Source: a virus
Lineage: Duplodnaviria > Heunggongvirae > Uroviricota > Caudoviricetes
Virus record (IMG/VR): IMGVR_UViG_2897358383_000002
Strand: one strand, 5' to 3'
Length of the DNA stretch: 64,000 nt
Shown here: one piece after another, positions 374-64,000 of the stretch
How positions within the stretch are numbered: position 1 is the first letter of the stretch
How the letters are laid out: every line of letters starts with the position of its first letter
Translations under genes and position numbers: made by a program
The notes under the pieces: generated by a model
The model's database searches: none
What the model saw: only the letters and a program-made list of their open reading frames with translations
Told to the model about the DNA's origin: nothing

Positions 374-1932
374 ATGAAAATGACAAGTATTCAACAACGT
401 GCAGAGCTTCATCGCCAGATCTGGCAAATTGCTAACGATGTCAGGGGTTCAGTCGATGGATGGGATTTTAAGCAGTACGTTTTGGGCGCGCTTTTTTACC
501 GTTTTATCAGCGAAAATTTTTCCAGCTATATTGAAGCCGGTGATGACAGTATCTGTTATGCGAAACTGGATGACAGCGTAATTACTGATGACATTAAAGA
601 CGATGCCATCAAAACCAAAGGTTACTTCATCTACCCCAGTCAGCTTTTCTGCAACGTAGCGGCGAAAGCAAATACCAATGACAGACTGAATGCGGATTTA
701 AACAGCATCTTCGTTGCTATCGAAAGTTCTGCTTACGGTTATCCTTCAGAAGCTGACATCAAAGGTTTGTTTGCTGATTTCGATACAACCAGTAACCGCC
801 TGGGGAATACCGTTAAGGATAAAAATGCCCGCCTGGCTGCGGTTCTGAAAGGGGTTGAAGGGTTAAAACTTGGTGACTTCCACGAACATCAGATTGACCT
901 GTTCGGTGACGCCTATGAGTTCCTGATTTCTAACTATGCGGCGAATGCCGGTAAGTCAGGCGGCGAGTTCTTTACACCGCAGCACGTCTCTAAGCTGATT
1001 GCACAACTGGCTATGCACGGGCAGACCCACGTTAACAAAATCTACGACCCGGCAGCAGGCTCCGGTTCGCTGTTGTTGCAGGCTAAAAAACAGTTTGATG
1101 ACCATATCATCGAAGAAGGTTTTTTTGGTCAGGAAATCAACCATACGACCTATAACCTGGCGCGTATGAACATGTTTTTGCACAACATCAACTACGACAA
1201 GTTTGATATCAAGCTGGGTAATACACTGACTGAGCCGCACTTCAGAGATGAAAAACCGTTTGATGCCATCGTTTCTAACCCGCCGTATTCGGTGAAATGG
1301 ATTGGCAGCGATGACCCGACGCTGATTAACGATGAACGTTTTGCCCCGGCTGGCGTTCTGGCCCCCAAATCCAAAGCTGACTTTGCGTTTGTATTACATG
1401 CGCTGAACTATCTTTCGGCCAAAGGTCGCGCTGCGATTGTCTGCTTCCCAGGCATTTTTTACCGTGGCGGCGCGGAGCAGAAAATCCGTCAGTATCTGGT
1501 CGATAATAACTATGTCGAAACCGTGATTTCACTGGCTCCGAACCTGTTCTTTGGCACCACCATTGCCGTAAACATTCTGGTTCTGTCTAAACATAAAACG
1601 GATACCAAAGTTCAGTTTATTGACGCCAGCGAACTGTTCAAAAAAGAGACTAACAACAACATCCTGACCGATGCCCATATCGAAAAAATTATGCAGGTAT
1701 TTGCCAGCAAGGAAGATGTTGCTCATCTGGCGAAATCTGTTGCGTTTGAGACTGTTGTCGCGAATGACTATAACCTGTCGGTGAGCAGCTATGTGGAAGC
1801 GAAAGATACTCGCGAAATTATCGATATCGCTGAGCTGAATGCTGAGCTGAAAACCACGGTCAGCAAAATCGACCAGTTGCGCAAAGATATTGATGCGATT
1901 GTGGCTGAAATTGAAGGCTGCGAGGTGCAGAA

Positions 1933-1936
<4 letters not shown>
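374..1936 (+). CDS. hsdM: Type I restriction-modification N6-adenine DNA methyltransferase subunit (HsdM), Type IC/EcoR124-like
   Basis: 520-aa ORF with the NPPY catalytic motif (VSNPPYS) and AdoMet-binding region ([10 protein letters not shown]). Stop overlaps the hsdS start (ATGA). Confidence 0.95.
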
Positions 1937-3189
<1,253 letters not shown>

Positions 3190-3310
3190 TTGACCATTGC
3201 TACAGACCGGCTCACCTTAACATCCGGTCAGTATATAGACTATTTTTTACGCGCCGGAAGTCACTCTTAACGCCCTTCCGGCTCTTGCCAGGCGGCACAA
3301 AGGATGCGCT

Positions 3311-6300
3311 ATGACTCATCAAACACACACCATTGCTGAATCCAATAACTTTATCGTCCTTGATAAGTACATCAAAGCTGAGCAAACAAGCGACAGCTAC
3401 CAGAGCGAATCGGACCTGGAACGTGAACTGATTCAGGACCTGCGGAATCAGGGTTATGAATTTATTTCCGTAAAATCACAGTCGGCAATGCTGTCTAATG
3501 TTCGGGAACAGCTTCAGAGCCTCAATGGTGTGATGTTTAATGACAGCGAGTGGCGGCGCTTCACGGAGCAGTATCTGGACAACCCCAGCGATGGTATTCT
3601 GGATAAAACCCGTAAAATCCATATCGACTATATCTGCGACTTTATTTTTGACGACGGGCGACTTGAGAACATCTATTTGATAGATAAAAAGAATCTCATG
3701 CGCAATAAGGTGCAGATTATCCAGCAGTTTGAACAGACGGGTTCTCATGCTAACCGTTATGACGTCACGATCCTGGTTAATGGTTTACCGCTGGTGCAAA
3801 TCGAACTAAAAAAACGCGGGGTGGCGATTCGTGAGGCTTTCAACCAGATACATCGTTACAGTAAAGAGAGTTTTAACAGCGAAAATTCCCTGTTTAAGTA
3901 TCTGCAACTGTTTGTCATTTCTAACGGCACCGATACCCGTTATTTTGCCAACACAACAAAGCGCGATAAAAACAGTTTTGACTTCACCATGAATTGGGCG
4001 AAATCAGACAACACGCTGATTAAAGACCTCAAAGACTTTACCGCTACCTTTTTCCAGAAACATACTCTGCTGAATGTTCTGGTGAACTACAGCGTTTTTG
4101 ACAGTAGTCAGACGCTACTGGTGATGCGACCGTACCAGATTGCCGCCACCGAACGAATCTTATGGAAAATCAACAGCTCCTATAAAGCGAAAAACTGGTC
4201 TAACCCCGAAAGCGGTGGCTTTATCTGGCACACTACCGGTTCTGGTAAAACACTGACCAGCTTTAAAGCCGCGCGTCTGGCAACAGAACTGGACTTTATT
4301 GATAAAGTCTTCTTCGTGGTCGACAGGAAAGACCTCGATTACCAGACCATGAAGGAATATCAGCGTTTTTCGCCAGACAGCGTCAACGGCTCGGAAAATA
4401 CCGCAGGCCTTAAACGAAATCTGGATAAGGACGATAACAAAATTATCGTCACTACTATTCAGAAACTCAATAACCTGATGAAAGCAGAAAGCGACCTGTC
4501 TGTATATAATCAGCAAGTGGTGTTTATATTTGATGAATGCCACCGCAGCCAGTTTGGAGAAGCGCAGAAAAACCTGAAGAAGAAATTCAAACGCTATTAT
4601 CAGTTTGGTTTTACCGGCACACCTATTTTCCCGGAAAACGCCTTAGGCTCAGAAACGACCGCCAGCGTATTTGGTCGTGAATTGCATTCGTATGTAATTA
4701 CCGATGCGATTCGTGATGAAAAAGTGCTCAAATTCAAGGTGGACTACAACGATGTGCGGCCACAGTTTAAGTCTTTAGAGACAGAAACTGACGAGAAAAA
4801 ACTAAGTGCGGCTGAAAATCAGCAGGCGTTTCTTCATCCCATGCGTATACAGGAAATTACGCAATATATTCTGAATAACTTCCGCCAGAAGACCCACCGT
4901 ACTTTCCCAGGTTCCAAAGGCTTTAATGCTATGTTGGCAGTGAGCAGCGTGGATGCTGCAAAAGCCTATTACGCGGCGTTTAAACGGTTACAAGAGGAAG
5001 CCGCTAATAAATCTGCAACTTATAAACCGCTGCGTGTTGCGACAATCTTCTCCTTTGCCGCTAATGAAGAACAAAATGCCATTGGTGAAATTTCCGATGA
5101 AACTTTTGATACCAGCGCAATGGACAGCAGTGCTAAAGAGTTTCTTGACGCTGCAATTCGTGAGTATAACAGCTATTTTAAAACTAACTTCAGCACCGAC
5201 GGTAACGGTTTTCAGAACTACTATCGCGATTTAGCCCAACGGGTTAAAAATCAGGATATCGATCTGTTAATTGTCGTGGGGATGTTTTTAACTGGCTTCG
5301 ATGCTCCAACATTGAACACGCTATTCGTCGATAAAAACCTGCGTTTTCACGGCTTGATGCAGGCATTTTCCCGCACCAACCGTATTTATGATGCAACTAA
5401 AACCTTCGGTAATATCGTCACTTTCCGGGATCTGGAACGCTCAACTATTGATGCCATAACGCTGTTTGGTGACAAAAACACCAAAAATGTGGTTTTAGAA
5501 AAGAGTTATGCAGAGTATATGGAAGGCTTTACTGATGCTGCCACTGGTGAAGCTAAGCGCGGCTTTATGGCAGTAGTTTCAGAACTGGAACAACGGTTCC
5601 CTGACCCTGCCAGTATTGAAAGTGAAAAAGAGAAGAAAGACTTCGTTAAACTGTTTGGTGAATACCTGCGTGCCGAGAACATCCTGCAAAACTATGATGA
5701 ATTTGCCACGCTGAAAGCCCTGCAACAAATCGATCTTAGCGATCCTGTTGCGGTAGAAAAATTCAAAGAAGAACATTATGTGGATGATGAAAAGTTCGCT
5801 GAATTGCAAACGATTCGTCTCCCTGCTGAACGCAAGATTCAGGATTATCGTTCTGCCTATAACGATATTCGTGACTGGCAGCGCCGCGAGAAAGAAGCTG
5901 ATAAAAAAGAAAAATCAACCACTGACTGGGATGACGTGGTTTTTGAGGTCGATTTGCTGAAGTCTCAGGAAATAAACCTGGATTATATCCTTGGACTGAT
6001 TTTCGAACACAACAGACAAAATAAAGGCAAGGGCGAAATGATCGAAGAGGTCAAACGCTTAATTCGTTCAAGCCTGGGGAACCGGGCGAAAGAGGGCCTG
6101 GTGGTCGATTTTATTCAGCAAACGAACCTGGATGATTTACCAGACAAAGCCAGTATCATTGAGGCATTCTTTACGTTTGCTCAACGCGAACAGCAACGTG
6201 AAGCAGAAGCATTGATAAAAGAAGAAAATCTCAATGAAGATGCAGCAAAACGCTATATTCGCACGTCTTTAAAACGCGAATACGCCACCGAAAATGGCAC

Positions 6301-6427
6301 AGAATTAAACGAAACATTACCAAAACTTAGTCCGTTGAATCCGCAATATAAAACGAAAAAACAGGCAGTTTTCCAGAAAATCGTCTCGTTTATTGAGAAG
6401 TTTAAAGGCGTAGGCGGAAAAATATAG
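3311..6427 (+). CDS. hsdR: Type I restriction enzyme endonuclease/translocase subunit (HsdR)
   Basis: 1038-aa ORF with SF2 helicase motifs (Walker A TTGSGKT, DEAH-box FDECHRS) and an N-terminal nuclease region. Length class matches EcoR124-type HsdR. Confidence 0.95.
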
Positions 6428-38457: not shown

Positions 38458-39054
38458 ATGGCTGTGATTCCAATGTCGTACTCCCCGGGTACTGTCGCTC
38501 GTCGATTTTCGATCCTGGACGGAGTTACCATCCAGGGTGTGCTTTACCAGGTTATATGGGATTCCAAAACCCCATTTGCAGCTGTAATAGAGGCTGCGCC
38601 TTCTGTTATCGATGGTGATATGCGCCATAAGGTTGTCGCTACTCTTGAACTTCAACGTCGCCCGCAGCTTGAAGGCGTACTGGTAAGGAAGTTCTGGGAG
38701 GATAGCGATGTTGCCCAGATTGAAGGTATCGTGGTTGATGGAACCGTCCGGGATGTCGGTTTAGCTACTTTTGTTTACGAAACCGTAGCCTCAAAAGCTG
38801 GTGTTGTTTTGCTCAGTGATAATGAGCAATACGAAGGTGGAAAAGCTCTTTGGCAACACATCGCCCGTCGCTCTTCCGAGCTAAAAGTGTTTATCCTCGA
38901 CACCGATGCCGCTCAGTATTACCCGTTTGACGGCGAACGTGTTTGCTATGACGGGGTAAGTATTCCTGAATCCGAGATATGGAGTGAACACCCAGATCGA
39001 AGTAAGCATGGGGTTGTTCTGGTCGCTGAATCCATAATTGGAAAGGCGGCATAG
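38458..39054 (+). CDS. Hypothetical protein
   Basis: ATG 38458 (MAVIPMSYSPG...). Track ORF starts at an upstream alternative start. Confidence 0.5.
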   Translation: MAVIPMSYSPGTVARRFSILDGVTIQGVLYQVIWDSKTPFAAVIEAAPSVIDGDMRHKVVATLELQRRPQLEGVLVRKFWEDSDVAQIEGIVVDGTVRDVGLATFVYETVASKAGVVLLSDNEQYEGGKALWQHIARRSSELKVFILDTDAAQYYPFDGERVCYDGVSIPESEIWSEHPDRSKHGVVLVAESIIGKAA

Positions 39055-39236
39055 CAGTAAAAAATTCCTTGCTCCTAAAAAGGGGAGAGGGCTAATCTAC
39101 GTATGCTAAGCATAGATATGGCCTCAGATTAATGTTAAGCGTCTTGCAGGACGCGTAATGTTATCTGGGGCTTTCTTCTATCTGCTTGTCGGGTAATGCC
39201 TGAAGCAGATAGCCTCAAGCACCCGCAGCGATTGTA

Positions 39237-42634: not shown

Positions 42635-42950
42635 AGTTACGGCCTCATTCGTAGGTTTAACAACCTGCGCCCCGCTGCTAAACGGGTGGCAGGACGTGAC
42701 GGGGTTAGCAGACTGGCACGAATGAAACCAGCAGGCCGAAGCCTCCCCATCACGCCCCACCATAATTCGGGCGTAACGTGGTTTTACGGACACAAAAATT
42801 CCGCAATATCGGATATCTGCGGTTGTCCGCATTCGTATTCAGGCTGCTAAACCCGGTCGCAGAATTTGCTACGACGGCGGAACTATAAGCCTGAACGATT
42901 AAAAGGTCAATATGATGCGAAAAGATAGCATTCGCGACTTAAAAATACAA

Positions 42951-50428: not shown

Positions 50429-50784
50429 TGGCCAACAATAATGAAATTGATCCTTTACTGACGCTGGAGTTATCCGGCGTAAAAACGTATGAGTCCCAGG
50501 AGGAGGCCTGGGGCGCTCGTTTATATGAGTGGCTAAACACTTATCAGGGTGAGGTATACGGAGATCCGTCATGGGGCAATGTTTTACCGCAGTTTAAACA
50601 CGAACCGACCAACTTGTCGCATGTTCAAATTGCGGTTGAGGCAATGCTGTTGCAAAAACTGACGGTAGATTTACCTGACATACCGATTTCTGGCTTGTCA
50701 GTAGCCGAGGGAGATGCTTTTGATAAGTTGAAAATATCCATTCGTATCAGGGATATAACTATCACACAGGACGTGGTGCTATGA
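50425..50784 (+). CDS. Hypothetical structural protein (119 aa)
   Basis: Start overlaps the tape-measure stop (ATGA). Confidence 0.55.
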   Translation: MMANNNEIDPLLTLELSGVKTYESQEEAWGARLYEWLNTYQGEVYGDPSWGNVLPQFKHEPTNLSHVQIAVEAMLLQKLTVDLPDIPISGLSVAEGDAFDKLKISIRIRDITITQDVVL

Positions 50785-52214
50785 GTAAAACAACACCGAC
50801 TAAAGACAGTATTCGTGCAGAGTTTGAAGAGCTTGTCGAGAAAGATTCATTCTGGTCGAAGTTTGTCGGCTCTCAATTTGTCTCGATGCTGACATTGTTT
50901 ATTACCCAGATTGTCTACAGGTGCTTTCAGTATGCCGATGCGGCGCTGGCTGAAGGCTTTATATCGACCGCGACGCGGCGTTCCTCTATCCTGGCAGCGG
51001 CAGAAACGAATAGTTACGTTGGTACCAAGCCAACACCGTCATCGGGGATGATTGAGATCACCGCCACAAGTGAAGATGCCCCAGCGGTAATCCCCAAAAA
51101 TATGCCTTTAATATCTGACGACCAGTACCCTTACATGACTATGGATGTATGCAGGTTGGTTGACGGCACCGGTACGGTAGAAGTGGCACAGTTGGAAATC
51201 CAGGAGGTGACATATACCGTTACGGCAGCCAAAGAATTTCTGGAAGTCGTGTTATCAAAGGCTCTCACTGCTGTCTGCTATAAGCTGGAAGTATTCGTGA
51301 CGACCGATGGTAAGACCACGCAGTGGTCTTCCAGCACTATGTTCCGGTTAGCCGGTAGTAAAAGCCAGGTCTACGTTGAGTTTTATAAGCCATCCGAGCA
51401 GTTGGGGGTTCGATTCGGTGATGGGCTAATTGGGCAAATACCGCCAGAAGGCTCGACCATTACACTTAAGGTATGGTGCACCAACGGAGATATAACCCTG
51501 GTTGCTGGCCAAAACCTGACGCCTGTCGATTCTGCGGCTAATTTAGCTAATTTGATTTCAGTTAAGACAACGACACCCATAACCGCAGGTACCGATGCCG
51601 AAACAACGGAGATCACACGTAATCGTGCACAATATTACCTTGCCTATGATGATCAGGTCGTATGGGGCGGGGACTATACGTATTTTTTGGTGCGTAACAT
51701 CCCGGGACTGTCCTGGGTAAAGGCATGGGGCGAAGGCCAGCAAGAGAAATTAGATGGTGCTTATAATGTTCGGAATATCAATAAGATATTTATTTCAGGA
51801 TGGCATCCAAACAAAAGCCAGTCAGAGCTTGAAGAAGTGATCCTGGCTGCCTTTAAGAAGGTGCCGAATGAGTTGAACAAGAAATTCTCGTATAAAGAGG
51901 TCAGAAAACTCCCCTTTAAGATCACTATCACTGGGCGGATATCGGCAAGCCTGACCATTGAGAACGTGACTGATGAGCTGAAGTCGGCACTGGAAACAAA
52001 ATTTGGGCGTGACTCAACTTTCTTTGATCCGAACCGTGTCGGCAAGTACATCCTAATCAAGAAAAAAGACGTTTGGGCATTTATCGAAACGCTGGGTTAT
52101 TTCCGCGACTTTTATCTGGAATTTGTCGAGTGGAATGAGTCCAACGGCTTTTACGATTTCGTTTATCTGGATACAGAAAACTCCACCTTTAATATTTCGT
52201 ATGAGGAGGAGTGA
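50781..52214 (+). CDS. Hypothetical structural protein, possible baseplate component (477 aa)
   Basis: Overlapping start and stop with neighbours in the tail operon. Confidence 0.55.
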   Translation: MSKTTPTKDSIRAEFEELVEKDSFWSKFVGSQFVSMLTLFITQIVYRCFQYADAALAEGFISTATRRSSILAAAETNSYVGTKPTPSSGMIEITATSEDAPAVIPKNMPLISDDQYPYMTMDVCRLVDGTGTVEVAQLEIQEVTYTVTAAKEFLEVVLSKALTAVCYKLEVFVTTDGKTTQWSSSTMFRLAGSKSQVYVEFYKPSEQLGVRFGDGLIGQIPPEGSTITLKVWCTNGDITLVAGQNLTPVDSAANLANLISVKTTTPITAGTDAETTEITRNRAQYYLAYDDQVVWGGDYTYFLVRNIPGLSWVKAWGEGQQEKLDGAYNVRNINKIFISGWHPNKSQSELEEVILAAFKKVPNELNKKFSYKEVRKLPFKITITGRISASLTIENVTDELKSALETKFGRDSTFFDPNRVGKYILIKKKDVWAFIETLGYFRDFYLEFVEWNESNGFYDFVYLDTENSTFNISYEEE

Positions 52215-53050
52215 TGCAGCGTTCCTGGTTTAATAACCGGCTTACATCAGCTAAGCAAAAGTCATTACTTTATAAATCATTGGCTGATTTGGTTCAGTCA
52301 ATGATGGACACCTTTGTTGACCCATGGTTGGAGCGAATTACCAACCGGAAGTCTATTTTCTCCATGAGCAAGGAGGATCTGGAGACTAGGACAAATGAAC
52401 TTGGCCAGTTTTTTACTATCAGAACGTCGAATTCATCTTCCGTTCCGATGTTGTTACAACAGCGGTTTGATGAGATCCATTTTAAGGGTACTGAACGCCC
52501 TATAAACCAGACAATTTATCGCGAATTTAACGGTATATCGGTTTTATGGGATCCAATATATGCTCCGGTGGACTTTGAACGTCATCCCTATGGCACGGTC
52601 CTGATTCCAGAAAGCACACTGGAAACCACCGGCGGCACATTCGGCGAGATGTTTCTGACTTCCAGAGGAATGATCAGTATTCCCATAAACGACCTGGCCC
52701 GGACAATGGGTATTACTGGAACGATAGATCAGTCCGCAATTACAGAAGAAATTCTCAGAAAGTTTAATCAGTTCGTAAAGCCTCTACTGCCACTGCATAT
52801 AGTGTTTGATGGGCTTACGCTCTATTTGTCGGTTGTTGTAAATGAACAGGCCGACATGATCACTTTGAATGAGATTTCTGATACCGAAAAAGCATTCTGC
52901 TGGTTTGAAACTTCGGATACAACTTCGCTTACTGAAGTTACGTCGATTAACGCCCCGATCACTGCAACGCCGGGCGGCACTATTGTGAAAGCAACGCCTA
53001 CGTTTGATCGCACCCGCGCAGATGATTTGCTGTTGGATAGCGATGCGTGA
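52211..53050 (+). CDS. Hypothetical structural protein (279 aa)
   Basis: GAGGAGG SD. Overlaps the previous stop. Confidence 0.55.
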   Translation: MMQRSWFNNRLTSAKQKSLLYKSLADLVQSMMDTFVDPWLERITNRKSIFSMSKEDLETRTNELGQFFTIRTSNSSSVPMLLQQRFDEIHFKGTERPINQTIYREFNGISVLWDPIYAPVDFERHPYGTVLIPESTLETTGGTFGEMFLTSRGMISIPINDLARTMGITGTIDQSAITEEILRKFNQFVKPLLPLHIVFDGLTLYLSVVVNEQADMITLNEISDTEKAFCWFETSDTTSLTEVTSINAPITATPGGTIVKATPTFDRTRADDLLLDSDA

Positions 53051-53128
53051 CAATCACCCCGTCCGCAGGGCGGGGTGACAAGTTACTTATCTTACAATGA
53101 GGCTTCACAACATTGATTAGGGAAAATC

Positions 53129-53563
53129 ATGTCTGACGTCTCAACAAACCTCTATAAGAGTCAGTTGTTGGACTATTACTATCAGCGGCGCGCTGAATCG
53201 TCCATTAACAAAGGCTCTCGATTTTTAATCAGCAAGGCCGTTTTCGGTACCAGTTCACTGGTTACTAAGAAAGGAGATGGCACTTATGAGATTGGAGAAC
53301 TGCCAAAGGCTTTCGATCTGGCAGAACTGACCAGTCAATTTTGCACCATCAACCTCGTCCCAACCTACTCAGGCGGGATAATTACTGTCCGAATGGACCT
53401 TGATCAAAGTCAGTTGCAGGAAGGGAAAAACTACCCATTCAACACTCTGGTTGTTCTGGATAACGAGAATAAGCCAATCGCCATTATTTGTGTCCAGGAA
53501 GACTCGCTGTATGTGGGCAAAACATATACCGCAGTTATGGCCATAAACTCGACTACAGCATAA
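53129..53563 (+). CDS. Tail-fibre-associated protein (R-like), 144 aa
   Basis: Immediately precedes the tail fibre gene. An identical copy lies inverted at 61901-62335. Confidence 0.55.
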   Translation: MSDVSTNLYKSQLLDYYYQRRAESSINKGSRFLISKAVFGTSSLVTKKGDGTYEIGELPKAFDLAELTSQFCTINLVPTYSGGIITVRMDLDQSQLQEGKNYPFNTLVVLDNENKPIAIICVQEDSLYVGKTYTAVMAINSTTA

Positions 53564-53574
53564 GGATATGCTTG

Positions 53575-56499
53575 ATGAATGACGTTACAGTTGTTACATC
53601 GGTTACTTACCCATCACCCGAGTCGTTGGCTCTGGTGGCTGATGTGCAATACCACGAACCATATCTGTCAGCCGCTCTAAACCGAAAATTCAGGGGAATT
53701 GTTGACCCGGGATTTTATGCTGGTTTCTTGCCTAAGCCTGGCGGTGGGATGAACCTGTTAATCACCTCAGTGGATGGAGATAAAACCGCTGGCGCGGCGT
53801 CAGTGGATATTGGTGAATTCTACCAGGTAACTATTCAGCATCGTAAGGATATCTCTCTTGCACTTAACGCAGGCAAGAAATATGCAATTGTGCTGAAGGG
53901 AAGATACCTTCTTGGAGAAGATACCTATCAGGTGAATACCGCGTCACATATTCATGCAGCTGAATTTGTTGCCAGAACCTATACCGATTCATATCAGTTA
54001 GGTGATGGGGAACTGCTGGTTTGTACGGTGAATATCCCTGCTGGCGTATCTACCATTACTCAAGAGATGATTGATACATCCGAGCGTATCAACCGCACGA
54101 TCGGCATTGATATTTCAGACTCTGTAACCAGTACCAGAAGTGATGTTGCTGCGAGTTCGCTGGCAGTTAAAAAAGCCTACGATCTGGCGAAAAGCAAGTA
54201 TACGGCGCAGGATGCAAGCACAACGCAAAAGGGATTAGTTCAGCTCAGTAGTGCCACTAACAGTACGTCCGAAGTGCTGGCCGCCACACCGAAAGCTGTC
54301 AAGGCTGCATATGACCTGGCTAACGGGAAGTATACAGCCCAGGATGCAACCACGACACAAAAAGGGATAGTTCAGCTCAGTAGCGACACCAACAGCACTT
54401 CTGAAACATTAGCTGCAACGCCAAAAGCGGTTAAAGCTGCATACGATCTAGCAGCCGGAAAGGCACCATCCAGTCATACACATCCCTGGAATCAGATCAC
54501 TGGTGTGCCAACAGCTTCATTGACAGCGAAAGGCATCACTCAGCTCAGTAGTGCCACTAACAGCACGTCTGAAGTGCTGGCCGCCACACCGAAAGCTGTC
54601 AAGGCTGCATATGACCTGGCTAACGGGAAGTATACAGCCCAGGATGCAACCACGACACAAAAAGGGATAGTTCAGCTCAGTAGCGACACCAACAGCACTT
54701 CTGAAACATTAGCTGCAACGCCAAAAGCGGTTAAAGCTGCATACGATCTAGCAGCCGGAAAGGCACCATCCAGTCATACACATCCCTGGAATCAGATCAC
54801 TGGTGTGCCAACAGCTTCATTGACAGCGAAAGGCATCACTCAGCTCAGTAGTGCCACTAACAGCACGTCTGAAGTGCTGGCCGCCACACCGAAAGCTGTC
54901 AAGGCTGCATATGACCTGGCTAACGGGAAGTATACAGCCCAGGATGCAACCACGACACAAAAAGGGATAGTTCAGCTCAGTAGCGACACCAACAGCACTT
55001 CTGAAACATTAGCTGCAACGCCAAAAGCGGTTAAAGCTGCATACGATCTAGCAGCCGAAAAAGCACCATCCAGTCATACACATCCCTGGAATCAGATTAC
55101 TGGTGTGCCAACAGCTTCATTGACAGCGAAAGGCATCACTCAGCTCAGTAGTGCCACTAACAGCACGTCTGAAGTGCTGGCCGCCACACCGAAAGCTGTC
55201 AAGGCTGCATATGACCTGGCTAACGGGAAGTATACAGCCCAGGATGCAACCACGACACAAAAAGGGATAGTTCAGCTCAGTAGCGACACCAACAGCACTT
55301 CTGAAACATTAGCTGCAACGCCAAAAGCGGTTAAAGCTGCATACGATCTAGCAGCCGGAAAGGCACCATCCAGTCATACACATCCCTGGAATCAGATCAC
55401 TGGTGTGCCAACAGCTTCATTGACAGCGAAAGGCATCACTCAGCTCAGTAGTGCCACTAACAGCACGTCTGAAGTGCTGGCCGCCACACCGAAAGCTGTC
55501 AAGGCTGCATATGACCTGGCTAACGGGAAGTATACAGCCCAGGATGCAACCACGACACAAAAAGGGATAGTTCAGCTCAGTAGCGACACCAACAGCACTT
55601 CTGAAACATTAGCTGCAACGCCAAAAGCAGTTAAAGCTGCATACGATCTAGCAGCCGGAAAGGCACCATCCAGTCATACACATCCCTGGAATCAGATCAC
55701 TGGTGTGCCAACAGCTTCATTGACAGCGAAAGGCATCACTCAGCTCAGTAGTGCCACTAACAGCACGTCTGAAGTGCTGGCCGCTACACCGAAAGCTGTC
55801 AAGGCTGCATATGATTTGGCTAATGGAAAGCAAGCGGCAGACGCTACGCTCACTGCTCTAGCGGCACTAGCTACCGCAGCAGATAAACTCCCTTATTTCA
55901 CAGGGGTTGATCGTGCCGCGTTAACTGCACTGACAAGTGTTGGACGTGCAATTCTTAGTAAGCCCAGTATTCAGAGCGTTCTTAATTACCTTGGTTTAGG
56001 GGAAGGCTCGGCGCTGCCCGTTGGTGTACCTGTTCCATGGCCCTCAGCCACACCACCAACGGGGTGGCTGAAATGTAACGGAGCAGCATTTTCTTCTGAA
56101 AAGTACCCAAATCTGGCAAAGGTTTACCCAACGTTAAAATTACCTGATTTACGCGGTGAGTTTATCCGTGGTTGGGATGATTCGAGAGGGATTGATACAG
56201 GGCGTTCATTGCTAAGTGGTCAGACTGCAACATTTATTCGTACAGCTTTGCAGGATTATTACGGTGTCGATCTGACTACTAATGTCAAAGTAGGTATCGC
56301 TTATGCTACTGCTGATTCTGTTATAACTGTTGGAAACCCTGCTAATCCTAAAGCAGGAGATAATAGCGATTATGTTCCAGCATCATCAGATAACTCCATA
56401 ACAGGCACTCAAAGGACGGCAGAGGATAATTTTACCGGGGCATGGATATCAATGCGCCCCCGCAACGTTGCTTTTAATTACATCGTAAGGGCAGCATGA
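53575..56499 (+). CDS. Tail fibre protein (S-like) with repetitive shaft and exchangeable C-terminal domain
   Basis: ATG 53575 with AAGGA SD (track ORF starts at 53488 inside the R-like gene). Repeats ATPKAVKAAYDLA. C-terminus GVPVPWPSATPPTGWLKCNGAAFS...LPDLRGEFIRGWDD is the conserved fibre-tip module. Confidence 0.85.
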   Translation: MNDVTVVTSVTYPSPESLALVADVQYHEPYLSAALNRKFRGIVDPGFYAGFLPKPGGGMNLLITSVDGDKTAGAASVDIGEFYQVTIQHRKDISLALNAGKKYAIVLKGRYLLGEDTYQVNTASHIHAAEFVARTYTDSYQLGDGELLVCTVNIPAGVSTITQEMIDTSERINRTIGIDISDSVTSTRSDVAASSLAVKKAYDLAKSKYTAQDASTTQKGLVQLSSATNSTSEVLAATPKAVKAAYDLANGKYTAQDATTTQKGIVQLSSDTNSTSETLAATPKAVKAAYDLAAGKAPSSHTHPWNQITGVPTASLTAKGITQLSSATNSTSEVLAATPKAVKAAYDLANGKYTAQDATTTQKGIVQLSSDTNSTSETLAATPKAVKAAYDLAAGKAPSSHTHPWNQITGVPTASLTAKGITQLSSATNSTSEVLAATPKAVKAAYDLANGKYTAQDATTTQKGIVQLSSDTNSTSETLAATPKAVKAAYDLAAEKAPSSHTHPWNQITGVPTASLTAKGITQLSSATNSTSEVLAATPKAVKAAYDLANGKYTAQDATTTQKGIVQLSSDTNSTSETLAATPKAVKAAYDLAAGKAPSSHTHPWNQITGVPTASLTAKGITQLSSATNSTSEVLAATPKAVKAAYDLANGKYTAQDATTTQKGIVQLSSDTNSTSETLAATPKAVKAAYDLAAGKAPSSHTHPWNQITGVPTASLTAKGITQLSSATNSTSEVLAATPKAVKAAYDLANGKQAADATLTALAALATAADKLPYFTGVDRAALTALTSVGRAILSKPSIQSVLNYLGLGEGSALPVGVPVPWPSATPPTGWLKCNGAAFSSEKYPNLAKVYPTLKLPDLRGEFIRGWDDSRGIDTGRSLLSGQTATFIRTALQDYYGVDLTTNVKVGIAYATADSVITVGNPANPKAGDNSDYVPASSDNSITGTQRTAEDNFTGAWISMRPRNVAFNYIVRAA
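54301..55800 (+). repeat. Five near-perfect 300-bp tandem repeats inside the tail fibre gene
   Basis: Units begin aaggctgcatatgacctggctaacgggaag at 54301, 54601, 54901, 55201 and 55501. Only a few SNPs between copies. Confidence 0.9.
55984..56008 (+). other. Putative recombination crossover site at the fibre constant/variable junction
   Basis: TTAATTACCTTGGTTTAGGGGAAGG. The same TTGGTTTRGGGGAAGG core precedes every cassette. Confidence 0.5.
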
Positions 56500-56520
56500 A
56501 AACGTTGGTTTGGGGGAAGG
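56500..56520 (+). other. Putative crossover site before cassette 2
   Basis: AAACGTTGGTTTGGGGGAAGG immediately after the fibre stop. Confidence 0.5.
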
Positions 56521-56938
56521 CTCTGCACTGCCTGTTGGTGTGCCCGTTCCGTGGCCCTTAGAAACACCACCAACGGGCTGGCTAAAATGTAACGGAGCAG
56601 CATTTTCTTCTGAAATGTATCCCAAACTGGCAAAAGCCTACCCCACCAATAAATTACCGGATTTACGCGGTGAATTTATCCGTGGCTGGGATGATGGGCG
56701 CGGGATTGATGCGGGACGTACCCTGCTTTCAGGGCAGGATGGTACAAGTTTTTCTCATTACGGAGGTAATTTCGACATTGGGTCTGGTCATTCAATCAAT
56801 AACTATGACCAAATTGTTTCTAACCAACCAGGATTTTCCCGTTTTTCATTTGCAGGGCCTTCACGAGGTGATGGGGTTAATTATGTAACCATTCGTCCTC
56901 GTAACATTGCGTTTAATTATATCGTAAGGGCGGCATGA
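56510..56938 (+). other. Promoterless alternative tail-fibre C-terminal cassette 2
   Basis: Encodes GEGSALPVGVPVPWPLETPPTGWLKCNGAAFS...NYIVRAA. The track's M is a TTG inside the crossover site. Confidence 0.6.
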
Positions 56939-56961
56939 AAACGTTGGTTTGGGGGAAGGCT
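56939..56961 (+). other. Putative crossover site before cassette 3
   Basis: AAACGTTGGTTTGGGGGAAGG. Confidence 0.5.
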
Positions 56962-57407
56962 CTGCACTGCCCGTTGGCGTGCCCGTTCCGTGGCCATCAG
57001 CCACACCTCCAACGGGGTGGCTGAAATGCAATGGCGCAGCATTTTCTTCTGAAAAGTACCCAAATCTGGCAAAGGTTTACCCAACGTTAAAATTACCTGA
57101 TTTACGCGGTGAGTTTATCCGTGGTTGGGATGATGGGCGAGGTGTGGATGCGGGAAGGGTCATCTTAAGCATACAGGGGTGGTTAACAGGAAGTCATTAT
57201 CATAATATTCGGTCATGGGACGCGTGGGATAACACGGTATTGGTGCCAAATGACAGAGGGGGGGATAGCCTGTTGTCGACAGATAACGCCGTCCAAGAAG
57301 GAGCGATTAATGGTAAATTTACCAGTCAATACAGAACGGAGTTATCTGGGGGGAATGAAACCCGCCCACGTAACATTGCCTTCAATTATATTGTGAGAGC
57401 AGCATAA
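56949..57407 (+). other. Promoterless alternative tail-fibre C-terminal cassette 3
   Basis: Same conserved N-terminal 60 aa as the fibre tip. Unique middle. Ends NYIVRAA. Confidence 0.6.
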
Positions 57408-58018
57408 TGGATAATGCGATATTAAATAGCGAACTTATAGCCATACAGGCAGGAAACATTATCGTTTATAACTATGATGGTGGTAATCGGGAATATATTT
57501 CTGCATCAACTGAATATCTTGCTGTTGGCGTTGGTATTCCGGCACATTCTTGTTTGGATGCTCCAGGCTCACATAAAGCAGGTTATGCGATTCTCCGTTC
57601 AGAGGATTTAAGTTCATGGGAGTATGTGCCAGATCATCGTGGCGAAACTGTCTATAGCATTGACACAGGGAATCCCGAAGAAATCACGGTGTTGGGTGAC
57701 TATCCGGAAAATACAACCACTATCGCCCCGCTAACACCATACGACAAATGGGATGGAGAGAAATGGGTGGTTGATACTGAGGCTCAACATAGTGCAGCTG
57801 TAGAGGCAGCAGAAACAAAACGTCAGTCATTGATTGATACTGCGATGGATTCCATTAGTCTGATTCAGTTGAAATTACGGGCTGGACGGAAGTTGACGCA
57901 GGCAGAAACCACGCAGCTTAACTCCGTGCTAGATTATATAGACGAGCTGAACGCGATGGATTTAACCACGGCACCAGATCTCAACTGGCCTGAAAAACAA
58001 CTTTCTACAGCCAGTTGA
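57407..58018 (+). CDS. Tail fibre assembly chaperone (Tfa / U-like)
   Basis: 203 aa. C-terminal DLNWPEKQ is typical of Tfa proteins. Confidence 0.7.
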   Translation: MDNAILNSELIAIQAGNIIVYNYDGGNREYISASTEYLAVGVGIPAHSCLDAPGSHKAGYAILRSEDLSSWEYVPDHRGETVYSIDTGNPEEITVLGDYPENTTTIAPLTPYDKWDGEKWVVDTEAQHSAAVEAAETKRQSLIDTAMDSISLIQLKLRAGRKLTQAETTQLNSVLDYIDELNAMDLTTAPDLNWPEKQLSTAS

Positions 58019-58023
58019 TATAA

Positions 58024-58521
58024 TTAATCCGCCCTCACAATATAATTAAATGCAATATTACGAGGGCGGGTTTCTAAGCCAGCAGTACCTAAATTAGCTA
58101 CGGACTGTTTATATGTTTTAAAAGTTCCATAATTAGGGGCTGGCAATCCTGCATCGCTTGTGTTCCCCCATCTGATAACTCCCGTATTACCACTAGTAGC
58201 CCATGCCTCGTCAAAGTAGAAATTAATTGAGCTGTCAGTTGCTACGGTTGATTTTGACGGTAATCCGTGAGCATGATCCTCCGTTGCATATCCTTGCTCG
58301 CTTAAAATAGAGCGACCTGGATCAATCCCGCGCCCGTCATCCCAGCCACGAATGAACTCACCACGTAAATCAGGCAATTTATTTGTCGGGTAAGCCTTTG
58401 CCAGATTTGGGTACTTTTCAGAAGAAAATGCTGCACCATTGCATTTCAGCCACCCCGTTGGAGGTGTGGCTGAAGGCCACGGAACAGGGACACCAACAGG
58501 TAATGCAGAGCCTTCTCCCAA
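58024..58521 (-). other. Alternative tail-fibre C-terminal cassette 4 (reverse orientation)
   Basis: Reverse-strand GEGSALPVGVPVPWPSATPPTGWLKCNGAAFS...unique...NYIVRAD, preceded by the crossover core (58509-58533). Confidence 0.6.
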
Positions 58522-58623
58522 ACCAACGTTTTTATGCCGCCCTTACGATGTAATTAAATGCGATATTTCGTGGACGGGTTACTCCCCATATTACCTCCCT
58601 CGTGAATGAAGTGTCGGTGATGA

Positions 58624-58968
58624 TCAAATCCTCTGTATTGTCATCAGATCCATCCTTGGTGTATGTTTTTTTGAAATGTCCCAGCTCCCATTCATCTTTT
58701 GTGTCGTAACCATCATGCTACAAAATATGTCGATGCTTTCAGCATTCCTGTCTGAATGCCAATAAAGCACGTCCCGCATCCACCCCGCGCCCATCATCCC
58801 AGCCGGAATAAATTCTCCCGTAATCCGGTAATTTATTGGTGGGTAGCTTTGCCAGATTTGGGTACTTTCAGAAGAAAATGCTGCACCATTGCATTTCAGC
58901 CACCCCGTTGGAGGTGTGCTGAGGGCCACGGAACGGGACGCCAACAGGCATGCAGAGCCTTCCCCCAA
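58624..58968 (-). pseudogene. Alternative tail-fibre cassette 5, disrupted by several 1-bp indels
   Basis: Recognisable conserved start (TPPTGWLKCNGAAFSSE), then frame loss. Crossover-like core at 58956-58980. Confidence 0.5.
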
Positions 58969-58995
58969 ACCAACGTTTTTTATGCTGCCCTTACG

Positions 58996-61889
58996 ATGTA
59001 ATTAAAAGCAACGTTGCGGGGGCGCATTGATATCCATGCCCCGGTAAAAATTATCCTCTGCCGTCCTTTGAGTGCCTGTTATGGAGTTCTGATGATGGAA
59101 CATAATCGCTATTATCTCCTGCTTTAGGATTAGCAGGGTTTCCAACAGTTATAACAGAATCAGCAGTAGCATAAGCGATACCTACTTTGACATTAGTAGT
59201 CAGATCGACACCGTAATAATCCTGCAAAGCTGTACGAATAAATGTTGCAGTCTGACCACTTAGCAATGAACGCCCTGTATCAATCCCTCTCGAATCATCC
59301 CAACCACGGATAAACTCACCGCGTAAATCAGGTAATTTTAACGTTGGGTAAACCTTTGCCAGATTTGGGTACTTTTCAGAAGAAAATGCTGCGCCGTTGC
59401 ATTTCAGCCACCCCGTTGGAGGTGTGGCTGAATGGGCCTGGAACAGGGTACGCCAAACGGGCCAGTGCAGAGCCTTCCCAAACCAAGGTAATTAAGAACG
59501 CTCTGAATACTGGGCTTACTAAGAATTGCACGTCCAACACTTGTCAGTGCAGTTAACGCACCCCTGTGAAATAAGGGAGTTTATCTGCTGCGGTAGCTAG
59601 TGCCGCTAGAGCAGTGAGCGTAGCGTCTGCCGCTTGCTTTCCATTAGCCAAATCATATGCCAGCCTTGACAGCTTTCGGTGTAGCGGCCAGCACTTCAGA
59701 CGTGCTGTTAGTGGCACTACTGAGCTGAGTGATGCCTTTCGCTGTCAATGAAGCTGTTGGCACACCAGTGATCTGATTCCAGGGATGTGTATGACTGGAT
59801 GGTGCCTTTCCGGCTGCTAGATCGTATGCAGCTTTAACTGCTTTTGGCGTTGCAGCTAATGTTTCAGAAGTGCTGTTGGTGTCGCTACTGAGCTGAACTA
59901 TCCCTTTTTGTGTCGTGGTTGCATCCTGGGCTGTATACTTCCCGTTAGCCAGGTCATATGCAGCCTTGACAGCTTTCGGTGTGGCGGCCAGCACTTCAGA
60001 CGTGCTGTTAGTGGCACTACTGAGCTGAGTGATGCCTTTCGCTGTCAATGAAGCTGTTGGCACACCAGTGATCTGATTCCAGGGATGTGTATGACTGGAT
60101 GGTGCCTTTCCGGCTGCTAGATCGTATGCAGCTTTAACCGCTTTTGGCGTTGCAGCTAATGTTTCAGAAGTGCTGTTGGTGTCGCTACTGAGCTGAACTA
60201 TCCCTTTTTGTGTCGTGGTTGCATCCTGGGCTGTATACTTCCCGTTAGCCAGGTCATATGCAGCCTTGACAGCTTTCGGTGTGGCGGCCAGCACTTCAGA
60301 CGTGCTGTTAGTGGCACTACTGAGCTGAGTGATGCCTTTCGCTGTCAATGAAGCTGTTGGCACACCAGTAATCTGATTCCAGGGATGTGTATGACTGGAT
60401 GGTGCTTTTTCGGCTGCTAGATCGTATGCAGCTTTAACCGCTTTTGGCGTTGCAGCTAATGTTTCAGAAGTGCTGTTGGTGTCGCTACTGAGCTGAACTA
60501 TCCCTTTTTGTGTCGTGGTTGCATCCTGGGCTGTATACTTCCCGTTAGCCAGGTCATATGCAGCCTTGACAGCTTTCGTGTGGCGGCCAGCACTTCAGAC
60601 GTGCTGTTAGTGGCACTACTGAGCTGAGTGATGCCTTTCGCTGTCAATGAAGCTGTTGGCACACCAGTGATCTGATTCCAGGGATGTGTATGACTGATGG
60701 TGCCTTTCCGGCTGCTAGATCGTATGCAGCTTTAACCGCTTTTGGCGTTGCAGCTAATGTTTCAGAAGTGCTGTTGGTGTCGCTACTGAGCTGAACTATC
60801 CCTTTTTGTGTCGTGGTTGCATCCTGGGCTGTATACTTCCCGTTAGCCAGGTCATATGCAGCCTTGACAGCTTTTCGTGTGGCGGCCAGCACTTCAGACG
60901 TGCTGTTAGTGGCACTCTGAGCTGAGTGATGCCTTTCGCTGTCAATGAAGCTGTTGGCACACCAGTGATCTGATTCCAGGGATGTGTATGACTGGATGGT
61001 GCCTTTCCGGCTGCTAGATCGTATGCAGCTTTAACCGCTTTGGCGTTGCAGCTAATGTTTCAGAAGTGCTGTTGGTGTCGCTACTGAGCTGAACTATCCC
61101 TTTTTGTGTCGTGGTTGCATCCTGGGCTGTATACTTCCCGTTAGCCAGGTCATATGCAGCCTTGACAGCTTTCGGTGTGGCGGCCAGCACTTCGGACGTA
61201 CTGTTAGTGGCACTACTGAGCTGAACTAATCCCTTTTGCGTTGTGCTTGCATCCTGCGCCGTATACTTGCTTTTCGCCAGATCGTAGGCTTTTTTAACTG
61301 CCAGCGAACTCGCAGCAACATCACTTCTGGTACTGGTTACAGAGTCTGAAATATCAATGCCGATCGTGCGGTTGATACGCTCGGATGTATCAATCATCTC
61401 TTGAGTAATGGTAGATACGCCAGCAGGGATATTCACCGTACAAACCAGCAGTTCCCCATCACCTAACTGATATGAATCGGTATAGGTTCTGGCAACAAAT
61501 TCAGCTGCATGAATATGTGACGCGGTATTCACCTGATAGGTATCTTCTCCAAGAAGGTATCTTCCCTTCAGCACAATTGCATATTTCTTGCCTGCGTTAA
61601 GTGCAAGAGAGATATCCTTACGATGCTGAATAGTTACCTGGTAGAATTCACCAATATCCACTGACGCCGCGCCAGCGGTTTTATCTCCATCCACTGAGGT
61701 GATTAACAGGTTCATCCCACCGCCAGGCTTAGGCAAGAAACCAGCATAAAATCCCGGGTCAACAATTCCCCTGAATTTTCGGTTTAGAGCGGCTGACAGA
61801 TATGGTTCGTGGTATTGCACATCAGCCACCAGAGCCAACGACTCGGGTGATGGGTAAGTAACCGATGTAACAACTGTAACGTCATTCAT
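58996..61889 (-). pseudogene. Inverted second copy of the tail fibre gene, fragmented by frameshifts
   Basis: Track ORFs 61014-61976, 60644-60892, 59653-60363 and 59051-59266 together reproduce the 53575-56499 fibre protein, with 1-bp indels between fragments. Confidence 0.6.
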
Positions 61890-61900
61890 CAAGCATATCC

Positions 61901-62335
61901 TTATGCTGTAGTCGAGTTTATGGCCATAACTGCGGTATATGTTTTGCCCACATACAGCGAGTCTTCCTGGACACAAATAATGGCGATTGGCTTATTCTCG
62001 TTATCCAGAACAACCAGAGTGTTGAATGGGTAGTTTTTCCCTTCCTGCAACTGACTTTGATCAAGGTCCATTCGGACAGTAATTATCCCGCCTGAGTAGG
62101 TTGGGACGAGGTTGATGGTGCAAAATTGACTGGTCAGTTCTGCCAGATCGAAAGCCTTTGGCAGTTCTCCAATCTCATAAGTGCCATCTCCTTTCTTAGT
62201 AACCAGTGAACTGGTACCGAAAACGGCCTTGCTGATTAAAAATCGAGAGCCTTTGTTAATGGACGATTCAGCGCGCCGCTGATAGTAATAGTCCAACAAC
62301 TGACTCTTATAGAGGTTTGTTGAGACGTCAGACAT
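61901..62335 (-). CDS. R-like tail-fibre-associated protein, inverted identical copy
   Basis: 144-aa product identical to that of 53129-53563. Confidence 0.5.
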   Translation of the reverse strand: MSDVSTNLYKSQLLDYYYQRRAESSINKGSRFLISKAVFGTSSLVTKKGDGTYEIGELPKAFDLAELTSQFCTINLVPTYSGGIITVRMDLDQSQLQEGKNYPFNTLVVLDNENKPIAIICVQEDSLYVGKTYTAVMAINSTTA

Positions 62336-64000
62336 GATTTTCCCTAATCAATGTTGTGAAGCCTCATTGTAAGATAAGTAACTTGTCACCCCGCCCTGCG
62401 GACGGGGTGATTGTCACGCATCGCTATCCAACAGCAAATCATCTGCGCGGTGCGATCAAACGTAGGTTGCTTTCACAATAGTGCCGCCCGGCGTTGCAGT
62501 GATCGGGGCGTTAATCGACGTAACTTCAGTAAGCGAAGTTGTATCCGAAGTTTCAAACCAGCAGAATGCTTTTTCGGTATCAGAAATCTCATTCAAAGTG
62601 ATCATGTCGGCCTGTTCATTTACAACAACCGACAAATAGAGCGTAAGCCCATCAAACACTATATGCAGTGGCAGTAGAGGCTTTACGAACTGATTAAACT
62701 TTCTGAGAATTTCTTCTGTAATTGCGGACTGATCTATCGTTCCAGTAATACCCATTGTCCGGGCCAGGTCGTTTATGGGAATACTGATCATTCCTCTGGA
62801 AGTCAGAAACATCTCGCCGAATGTGCCGCCGGTGGTTTCCAGTGTGCTTTCTGGAATCAGGACCGTGCCATAGGGATGACGTTCAAAGTCCACCGGAGCA
62901 TATATTGGATCCCATAAAACCGATATACCGTTAAATTCGCGATAAATTGTCTGGTTTATAGGGCGTTCAGTACCCTTAAAATGGATCTCATCAAACCGCT
63001 GTTGTAACAACATCGGAACGGAAGATGAATTCGACGTTTGATAGTAAAAAACTGGCCAAGTTCATTTGTCCTAGTCTCCAGATCCTCCTTGCTCATGGAA
63101 AAATAGACTTCCGGTTGGTAATTCGCTCCAACCATGGGTCAACAAAGGTGTCCATCATTGACTGAACCAAATCAGCCAATGAAAGTAATGACTTTTGCTT
63201 AGCTGATGTAAGCCGGTTATTAAACCAGGAACGCTGCATCACTCCTCCTCATACGAAATATTAAAGGTGGAGTTTTCTGTATCCAGATAAACGAAATCGT
63301 AAAAGCCGTTGGACTCATTCCACTCGACAATTCCAGATAAAAGTCGCGGAAATAACCCAGCGTTTTCGATAAATGCCCAAACGTCTTTCTTGATTAGGAT
63401 GTACTTGCCGACACGGTTCGGATCAAAGAAAGTTGAGTCACGCCCAAATTTTGTTTCCAGTGCCGACTTCAGCTCATCAGTCACGTTCTCAATGGTCAGG
63501 CTTGCCGATATCCGCCCAGTGATAGTGATCTTAAAGGGGAGTTTTCTGACCTCTTTATACGAGAATTTCTTGTTCAACTCATTCGGCACCTTCTTAAAGG
63601 CAGCCAGGATCACTTCTTCAAGCTCTGACTGGCTTTTGTTTGGATGCCATCCTGAAATAAATATCTTATTGATATTCCGAACAACATTATAAGCACCATC
63701 TAATTTCTCTTGCTGGCCTTCGCCCCATGCCTTTACCCAGGACAGTCCCGGATGTTACGCACCAAAAAATACGTATAGTCCCCGCCCCATACGACCTGAT
63801 CATCATAGGCAAAGGTAATATTGTGCACGATTACGTGTGATCTCCGTTGTTTCGGCATCGGTACCTGCGGTTATGGGTGTCGTTGTCTTAACTGAAATCA
63901 AATTAGCTAAATTAGCCGCAGAATCGACAGGCGTCAGGTTTTGGCCAGCAACCAGGGTTATATCTCCGTTGGTGCACCATACCTTAAGTGTAATGGTCGA

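Follow-up and report, generated by a model that had tools for sequence, protein, structure and literature searches.

The inverted duplication at the right end of the analysed window, a stretch of 64,000 nucleotides, is very probably an assembly artefact at a contig end, built on the real and known biology of a tail-fibre switch. The window corresponds to the final 64,000 nt of GenBank record CP027133.1, an E. coli P1-like plasmid. The real element is a P1-like phage-plasmid with a multiple-inversion region of the p15B-Min type at the end of its tail-fibre gene S; this region comprises six hix/cix-like crossover sites, a single fibre-assembly gene and six C-terminal cassettes that have no promoter. 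A sequence-only reading of the window had offered, as one origin of the duplication, consensus error in a low-coverage path or an assembler crossing an invertible region in both orientations, and this is closely supported by the multi-site cassette centre, the one-sided, indel-noisy terminal arm and the order of the cassettes as that of an inversion isomer.

The tail-fibre region carries on the plus strand, under their P1 gene names, bplA (50781-52214), gp16 (52211-53050), R (53129-53563) and S (53575-56499), the last consisting of a constant part (Sc) and a cassette. Pfam matches on the first copy of this region (arm A) comprise Baseplate_J, Phage_fiber_2 (12 times) and Collar, and a 300-nt tandem repeat inside S (54240..55830, plus strand; 5.3 copies at 98% identity) encodes the Phage_fiber_2 repeats. 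The currently expressed C-terminal tip of S is cassette cas1 (55988..56501, plus strand; Collar domain), which is part of arm A. It is followed on the same strand by the silent cassettes cas2 (56502-56940) and cas3 (56941-57406) and by a U-like tail-fibre assembly gene (Caudo_TAP, here TAP; 57407..58018), all three 100% identical to the sibling plasmid. Cassette cas4 with its crossover site s4 is inverted (58024..58538, minus strand), and the clean sequence stops at about its end. Each cassette ORF starts at its crossover site, bears a Collar domain and lacks a start of its own; among the siblings, either cas1 or cas2 is joined to the same Sc.

When arm B (64000-58769) is reverse-complemented, its alignment with arm A (51453-56719) spans 5281 columns; identity is 98.4%, mismatches number 23 and gap openings 39, a similarity far beyond chance. 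The truly duplicated DNA is 51453-56501 versus 64000-58974; the alignment extends to 56719/58769 because neighbouring cassettes have a common conserved 5' region. The inverted repeat described in the sequence-only reading is thereby confirmed at slightly refined coordinates. Its gene content, given there as the fibre gene, R and upstream genes, holds with one amendment, in that the arm also takes in cas1; the duplicated content is part of bplA, gp16, R, and S with its expressed C-terminal cassette. The 3' part of bplA, gp16, R and Sc in arm A (51453..55978, plus strand) form the clean copy, identical and without indels to sibling plasmid NZ_JBQJRN010000004.1. Their reverse-complement copy in arm B (59490..64000, minus strand) has 17 indels and one 2-nt substitution and runs to the end of the record. 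The inner end of arm B is a second, noisy copy of cas1 together with the crossover site that joins cas1 to Sc' (58974..59498, minus strand). The 300-nt tandem repeat, with its 5.3 copies, is the same in both arms and is mirrored in arm B at 59637-61224.

The spurious tail starts with a very noisy copy of cas6 (58527..58973, minus strand), which measures 447 nt versus 487; its alignment has 443 matching positions, 4 mismatches and 28 gap blocks. The window skips cas5, which the sibling has at this place. Reading the sibling's distal cassette as an inverted cas1, with a breakpoint at 59490, proved incorrect; perfect collinearity is lost at about 58573, and what follows is the noisy cas6.

Between the arms lies a 2.5-kb non-palindromic spacer (cas2-cas3-TAP-cas4'-cas6'), and the arms, which hold whole cassettes, have their ends at crossover sites. 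The simple fold-back that had also been suggested from the sequence does not agree with this layout. A technical fold-back read at the contig end, arising from a missed hairpin adapter, template-then-complement read-through or an amplification palindrome, would yield a segment followed directly by its own reverse complement, ending at an arbitrary fragment end, and the order after the turn would be cas3'-cas2'-cas1' instead of the cas4'-cas6'-cas1' observed. Chimeric reads of palindromic form are known among long-read artefacts (for example PMC13265396), and the tail is indeed terminal and noisy, but the asymmetric centre already largely refutes this explanation, and we regard it as very improbable. 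A random ligation chimera was rejected as well.

The quality of the two copies differs sharply. Against the sibling NZ_JBQJRN010000004.1, positions 1-58573 of the window (58,573 nt) show 7 mismatches and no gap; arm B contains 63 gap positions in about 5.3 kb. Comparison of 51453-55998 with arm B gave 19 differences, i.e. 18 indels of 1-10 nt and one 2-nt substitution, about half of them of homopolymer type. At 17 of these 19 differences the arm-A version of the surrounding 60-mer is present exactly in relatives, and the arm-B version at none; hence 17 polarise to arm B and 0 to arm A. Across the whole tail, 45 deletion and 10 insertion events were counted, of which 27 (of 55) are of homopolymer type, and the error density falls with distance from the junction, from 6.8 per 100 nt in cas6 through 2.9 in the second cas1 to 0.42 in the Sc' arm. 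This spectrum of differences is that of sequencing error and not of mutation. The consensus quality is strongly one-sided, unlike that of the equally supported arms of a palindrome, with quality serving only as a proxy for coverage. The two cas1 copies also differ by six clustered substitutions directly 3' of the crossover site, for which a mixed-isomer consensus is a candidate explanation.

The open reading frames follow the same pattern. The genes of arm A are intact; those of arm B are broken into fragments of 124, 185, 56, 233 and 231 aa, in line with the earlier claim that single-base indels split the fibre gene of the second copy into at least four ORF fragments. Such splitting could also be expected if the inverted duplication were real and stable and its second copy had decayed to pseudogenes. 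Decay should leave mostly substitutions, however, and the 4.5 kb of Sc' hold a single 2-nt substitution versus 17 deletion-biased, homopolymer-linked indels. The noise climbs steeply toward the junction, the remaining plasmid is free of indels relative to the sibling, which leaves no time for decay, the copy stops at the contig end, and the layout is absent from all relatives; a decayed duplication is therefore the least probable of the explanations considered, with next to no likelihood.

Six imperfectly symmetric 26-bp sites of the hix/gix/cix type were found in the window, conserved across the cassettes. Site s1 at the boundary of Sc and the cassette (55979..56004, plus strand) reads TTCTTAATTACC TT GGTTTAGGGGAA and was aligned with the annotated cixR of P1 (TTATCCAATACC TT GGTTTAAGAGAA), in which crossover takes place in the central TT. 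Sites s2 (56493-56518, before cas2) and s3 (56932-56957, before cas3) are also on the plus strand; s4 in cas4 (58513-58538), the site starting at 58960 and the site at the cas1'/Sc' join (59473-59498; with a 2-nt deletion) are on the minus strand. The sibling has three sites in each orientation, and the pattern in the window is identical; with sites of both orientations, the expressed cassette is swapped by inversion and not by deletion.

Enumeration of a six-site model gave 240 inversion isomers, and the cassette order of arm B is obtainable in this model by inversions alone. Read backwards, the tail has the order Sc-cas1-cas6-cas4, which is a legitimate alternative inversion isomer in reverse. 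The adjacency of cas1 to cas6 occurs in clean sequence in sibling NZ_OZ282438.1, and that of cas4' to cas6' in phage ON470615.2. Synthetic queries spanning the cas1|cas6 and cas6|cas4 junctions were ambiguous against E. coli genomes, since matches were joined over intervening cassettes, and cassette adjacency was read from direct mapping of the cassettes on the siblings. Near-identical genomes (L004, L010 and L001) are fixed in different cassette orders, to which the window tail adds a further one; inversion therefore actually occurs in this region. The cas3-TAP-cas4' module is bounded by the inverted sites s3 and s4 and is found in either orientation relative to Sc among the isomers. From the sibling configuration, the arm-B order is reached by three inversions, or by one inversion plus loss of cas5, so that more than one route leads to the tail read and its exact history is not unique.

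The last 5.4 kb of the CP027133.1 contig make up the second arm. Window position 64000 is record position 97167, the end of the record, and the sequences are identical; the length of the arm, about 5 kb, is set by the end of the deposited contig and not merely by the cutting of the window. In the siblings, Sc is followed by six cassettes and TAP, a serine recombinase (Resolvase/HTH_7) and then holins; the recombinase lies directly after the last cassette in three of them (L004, L002 and L010; Resolvase 2e-51, HTH_7 3e-15). In the window, the tail occupies the place of cas5' and of this recombinase, and no recombinase ORF was found at 56.5-64 kb (the first 33 kb of the record lie outside the window). 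A collinear match covering at least 80% of 53000-64000 was found in none of 72,556 plasmids, 50,697 phage records and 5,426 complete E. coli genomes, and an exact scan with an arm-B-specific 39-mer gave no match in viral_contigs or genome_contigs. The truncated arm-B proteins occur on the CP027133.1 contig only, and a literature search on this accession and its neighbours returned nothing relevant. The suggestion that, if real, two convergent fibre genes would draw on one cassette pool is left unsupported by any related record, and the tail displaces the recombinase gene.

These observations also bear on the possibility that the tail represents a real, rare head-to-head recombinant (inverted dimer) and that the contig end incorporates a single long read of it. 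Such a molecule could form when RecA, or the invertase acting between molecules, recombines two copies of the plasmid that differ in isomer state, across oppositely oriented cas3-TAP-cas4' modules; one junction would then read Sc-cassettes-Sc' and the other recombinase-cassettes-recombinase'. The junctions show no seam and fall within sequence that is homologous or bounded by sites, and the cassette order is that of a legitimate isomer, as such an event would leave them; a join made in silico and one made in vivo are indistinguishable from sequence, and a single genuine recombinant molecule would give the same contig. Against this stand the very poor, one-sided consensus of the tail and its stop after 5.4 kb, by which such molecules would be at most a tiny minority, and the absence of the layout from every related record searched. 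Din-family invertases (Hin, Gin, Cin) are, moreover, generally known to be strongly biased toward intramolecular inversion, and a join made by the assembler requires no added assumption. We consider the inverted dimer improbable, though the least so of the alternatives; if it were true, a multi-inversion host-range switch would at times yield giant replicons, quasi-palindromic in structure, in which two fibre operons converge.

For the assembly artefact, we propose that the sequenced culture held the cassette region in several inversion isomers, one being Sc-cas1-cas2-[cas3-TAP-cas4']-... and another, on the opposite strand, ...[cas3-TAP-cas4']-cas6'-cas1'-Sc'. The 1.6-kb cas3-TAP-cas4' module would be common to both in the same orientation, and through it a long-read overlap assembler may have crossed from the first isomer into a single read, or a small number of reads, from the second. 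The path would then have returned through the fibre gene, R, gp16 and bplA in reverse until the read or reads ended, which would be the contig end. Low read support of the tail is inferred from its consensus quality, and sequencing-type indels would have been kept in the consensus because few reads supported it. Errors would accordingly be expected to be worst at the isomer-specific cassette adjacency and mildest in Sc', which is common to every molecule. According to PMC5430464, structural heterogeneity within a clone makes multiple-inversion regions very difficult to assemble.

The biological weight of the finding is small, since fibre switches of the Min/Cin type have been known for decades, although the tail is an indirect sign of active flipping of the switch in the culture that was sequenced. 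Its consequences are mainly for the public record: CP027133.1, labelled 'complete', carries a 5.4-kb spurious, frameshifted inverted tail and needs correction, and, judged by its length relative to the siblings, it probably lacks about 4.5 kb (cas5, a proper cas6, the invertase and the holin region). Bogus truncated proteins derived from it have entered the protein databases (AVJ68581.1, RefSeq WP_249827762.1; AVJ68582.1). The record is a clean example of how heterogeneity from programmed inversion misleads long-read assemblers.

By its architecture, the region resembles most closely the Min system of the E. coli plasmid p15B, with its Din-family serine invertase. Both have a P1-related phage-plasmid backbone, Sc followed by a block of about 3.5 kb with six crossover sites, three per orientation, and several start-less C-terminal cassettes with one assembly gene; in the siblings of the window, a Resolvase/HTH_7 recombinase adjoins the block. 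Unlike p15B Min, the window is without a recombinase at the expected place, and its cassettes are followed by another Sc in reverse; this difference is the artefact. Sandmeier, Iida and Arber, around 1990-92, reportedly arrived at 240 isomers for p15B Min, equal to the figure from the six-site model.

The Cin/C-segment of phage P1 (and the Gin/G-segment of Mu) shares the sit, pmgA, bplA, 16, R, S neighbourhood, and P1 is about 97% identical to the window at the DNA level up to Sc; the same 26-bp site type with a central TT stands at the Sc boundary. The number of sites is two in P1, with two alternative sets of Sv/U, whereas the present element has six, along with six short Collar-domain cassettes and only one assembly gene. 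The cin gene of P1 contains an annotated recombinational enhancer (Fis-dependent in this type of switch), and the corresponding sequence lies outside the window.

Palindromic chimeric long reads likewise produce noisy inverted duplications at contig ends, but they are without a unique spacer, and here 2.5 kb bounded by recombination sites separates the arms. Shufflons and other multi-inversion regions share with the present case a clonal culture of many isomers that leads to wrong or chimeric assembly paths. The shufflons of R64 and IncI2 employ the tyrosine recombinase Rci on pilV, and the outcome here is a terminal inverted spur and not a collapsed or fragmented region. The sibling records are each fixed in a different isomer.

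An inverted-repeat search of the window returned long complementary blocks, perfect or nearly so, at 51.4-56.4 kb and 59.1-64.0 kb. By BLAST, 51453-56719 (arm A, the clean forward copy) pairs with the reverse complement of 64000-58769 (arm B, the noisy copy) as a single alignment of 5281 columns with 98.4% identity, 23 mismatches and 39 gap openings. Compared base by base over 51453-55998, the arms differ at 19 points, i.e. by 18 indels of 1-10 nt and one 2-nt substitution; the latter falls within a tandem repeat. In arm A, bplA, gp16 and R were called intact, as was the tail-fibre gene S (974 aa); the gene calls of arm B on the public record are pieces of 124, 185, 56, 233 and 231 aa. These data confirm the sequence-only reading of the tail region as an inverted duplication with small indels, the second copy of which is broken into ORF fragments. 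S contains a tandem repeat of a 300-nt (100-aa) unit (5.3 copies, 98% identity) at 54240-55830, found also at 59637-61224. The fibre has 859 aa in one relative and 974 aa in the window, and these differing lengths suggest that the repeat copy number varies.

In DNA searches the window grouped with the P1-like (Punavirus) phage-plasmids; as far as the constant part of S (Sc) it is about 97% identical to P1, P7 and SJ46. Pfam assignments comprise an SLT-domain protein (Sit), a baseplate J-like protein (BplA), a 12-repeat Phage_fiber_2/Collar protein (the S tail fibre), several short ORFs with a Collar domain, and a single assembly protein (Caudo_TAP). The gene bplA (50781-52214; Baseplate_J / gp6-like) goes by the name 'bleomycin hydrolase' in numerous plasmid entries of RefSeq, an apparent propagated misannotation. 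All well-assembled relatives share one architecture: Sc, six short fibre-tip cassettes (cas1-cas6) with one assembly gene (TAP), a recombinase of 190 aa (Resolvase, 2e-51; HTH_7, 3e-15), and holin genes. A conserved region of crossover site plus cassette 5' end is present in six copies in the window and in six in the main sibling plasmid, three per orientation. The site cores read ...AAAACG TT GGTTTGGGGGAA and, at the Sc boundary, TTCTTAATTACC TT GGTTTAGGGGAA; they match the annotated cixR of P1, TTATCCAATACC TT GGTTTAAGAGAA, where crossover occurs at the central TT. The block is a multiple inversion system of the p15B-Min type.

The 185-aa frameshift-truncated protein of arm B was found on one public contig only, CP027133.1, an E. 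coli plasmid of 97,167 bp (assembly GCA_002968735.1). The window is identical to the final 64,000 nt of this record; position 64000 is its last base, so arm B makes up the last 5.4 kb of the deposited contig. Against the main comparison plasmid, the circular sibling NZ_JBQJRN010000004.1 (96,236 bp), window 1-58573 aligns gap-free over 58,573 nt, with 100% identity in 1-35237 and seven mismatches in 35238-58573; the remainder, i.e. the tail that follows the reversed cassette cas4', shows 22 mismatches and 63 gap positions. Without its 5,427-nt tail, CP027133.1 measures 91,740 nt, about 4.5 kb below the 96.2-kb siblings, a shortfall close in size to the sibling interval that holds cas5', cas6', the recombinase and the holins; judged from lengths only, the deposited record may lack the invertase, cas5 and the holin region. 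The truncated products (AVJ68581.1 / WP_249827762.1 and AVJ68582.1) are now in protein databases.

Cassette mapping gave the layout Sc-cas1-cas2-cas3-TAP-cas4'-cas6'-cas1'-Sc', followed by the reversed upstream genes; cas6' is noisy (447 nt vs 487 expected), as is cas1', and the sibling continues after cas4' with cas5'-cas6'-recombinase. Read on the opposite strand, the tail becomes Sc-cas1-cas6-cas4-TAP'-cas3'..., which in the six-site model is reachable by inversions alone, three inversions away from the order of the sibling. NZ_OZ282438.1 (Sc-cas1-cas6-cas3-TAP-cas4'-...) differs from it by one flip of the cas3-TAP-cas4' module, and the cas4'-cas6' adjacency occurs in phage ON470615.2. An order within reach of inversions, with adjacencies found in relatives, indicates that the tail is, in reverse, a legitimate inversion isomer. 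The tail and the main path have a 1.6-kb cas3-TAP-cas4' module in common, equally oriented in both. Both arms end at crossover sites and hold whole cassettes, and the 2.5 kb separating them are without self-complementarity; a simple fold-back read (template/complement or missed adapter) is thereby excluded, as is a random ligation chimera. A technical fold-back read in general is very unlikely, being contradicted by the asymmetric, site-bounded centre. In NZ_OZ282438.1, two identical cas2 copies adjoin (2733-3610 of its extracted locus) and cas5 is absent; gene conversion may account for this, or an assembly that resolved a repeat wrongly.

When polarised against three outgroup relatives, the 19 differing positions gave an exact match to arm A in 17 cases and to arm B in none. 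Counted against the clean expectation (Sc + cas1 + cas6), the tail carries 0.42 errors per 100 nt in Sc', 2.9 in cas1' and 6.8 in cas6'; the events are 45 deletions and 10 insertions, 27 of the 55 of homopolymer type. This is the spectrum expected of a thinly supported long-read consensus and not of mutation. A genuine duplication that has since decayed is thus extremely improbable: error spectrum and noise gradient contradict it, the rest of the plasmid is at zero divergence, and the copy stops at the contig end. The two cas1 copies differ by six clustered substitutions within the first 95 nt past the crossover site, and at all six arm B has the base that the other cassettes show in their consensus, in keeping with reads of other isomers having drawn the sequence their way. 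Directly 3' of s1, the site at the Sc/cassette boundary, an 80-nt stretch (55998-56076) holds six of the seven positions at which the sibling departs from window 1-58573 (window/sibling A/G, G/T, G/A, C/T, A/G, T/C), and its arm-A variant (GGCTCGGCGCTG) was present in none of the other loci compared. This cluster could be a gene-conversion hot spot among cassette 5' regions or isomer consensus mixing. NZ_OZ282438.1 likewise differs from the sibling in cas1, by four mismatches.

No collinear match to at least 80% of 53000-64000 was found among 72,556 plasmids, 50,697 phage records or 5,426 complete E. coli genomes; hundreds of P1-like plasmids matched one half or the other. The inverted duplication is very probably an assembly artefact and not a real feature; one-sided noise, contig end and isomer order support the earlier suggestion of consensus error or of an assembler path through an invertible region. 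The sequenced culture would have held mixed inversion isomers. An overlap-based assembler would have entered the block from Sc along the most frequent isomer and, within the shared module, switched to the reverse-strand sequence of another isomer, carried by a single read or a few and leading out into Sc'. The contig would run on to the end of this read or these reads and then halt, arm A having already taken up all other reads of that stretch. Correction and polishing would be good in Sc', to which any molecule contributes, and poor in cas6'-cas1', where the rare adjacency alone is informative, which would explain the noise gradient. PMC5430464 describes multi-inversion regions as exceptionally hard to assemble because isomers are mixed. 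A rare real head-to-head recombinant molecule, caught by one read, is unlikely, and would not be the genome structure of the plasmid.

Other records and features were also noted. The record ON470615.2 (phage vB_EcoM-673R5) is fragmented: Sit is split over several ORFs, the fibre too is broken up, and the invertase bears the two names 'Hin1' and 'Hin2'. Aligned to the sibling, its cassettes have 2-14 gaps, and the record resembles a long-read assembly left unpolished. The 'Escherichia phage P1' records MH445380.1 (126,505 bp) and MH445381.1 (66,750 bp) are far from the ~94 kb of P1 and may contain duplications or truncations from assembly. A type I restriction-modification operon (hsdM, 520 aa; hsdS, 418 aa; hsdR, 1038 aa) lies at 374-6427, with the phd/doc addiction genes directly upstream in relatives; on the P1 map, the corresponding part is occupied by the res/mod genes of the type III system EcoP1. 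ARAGORN predicted a tRNA-Met (anticodon CAT) at 19978-20053, the same gene of the sibling being tRNA-Ile in RefSeq. This and the other tRNAs (tRNA-Thr and tRNA-Asn, 21485-21638), the C4 antisense RNA with its targets (42682-42888) and a sok-like RNA (39050-39224) are standard P1 features.

The main use of the finding is to flag a faulty public record, CP027133.1. The Min-type six-site tail-fibre switch beneath the duplication is biology already known. A simple six-site, inversions-only model of the block yields 240 configurations, the same count as the isomer figure reportedly published for p15B.
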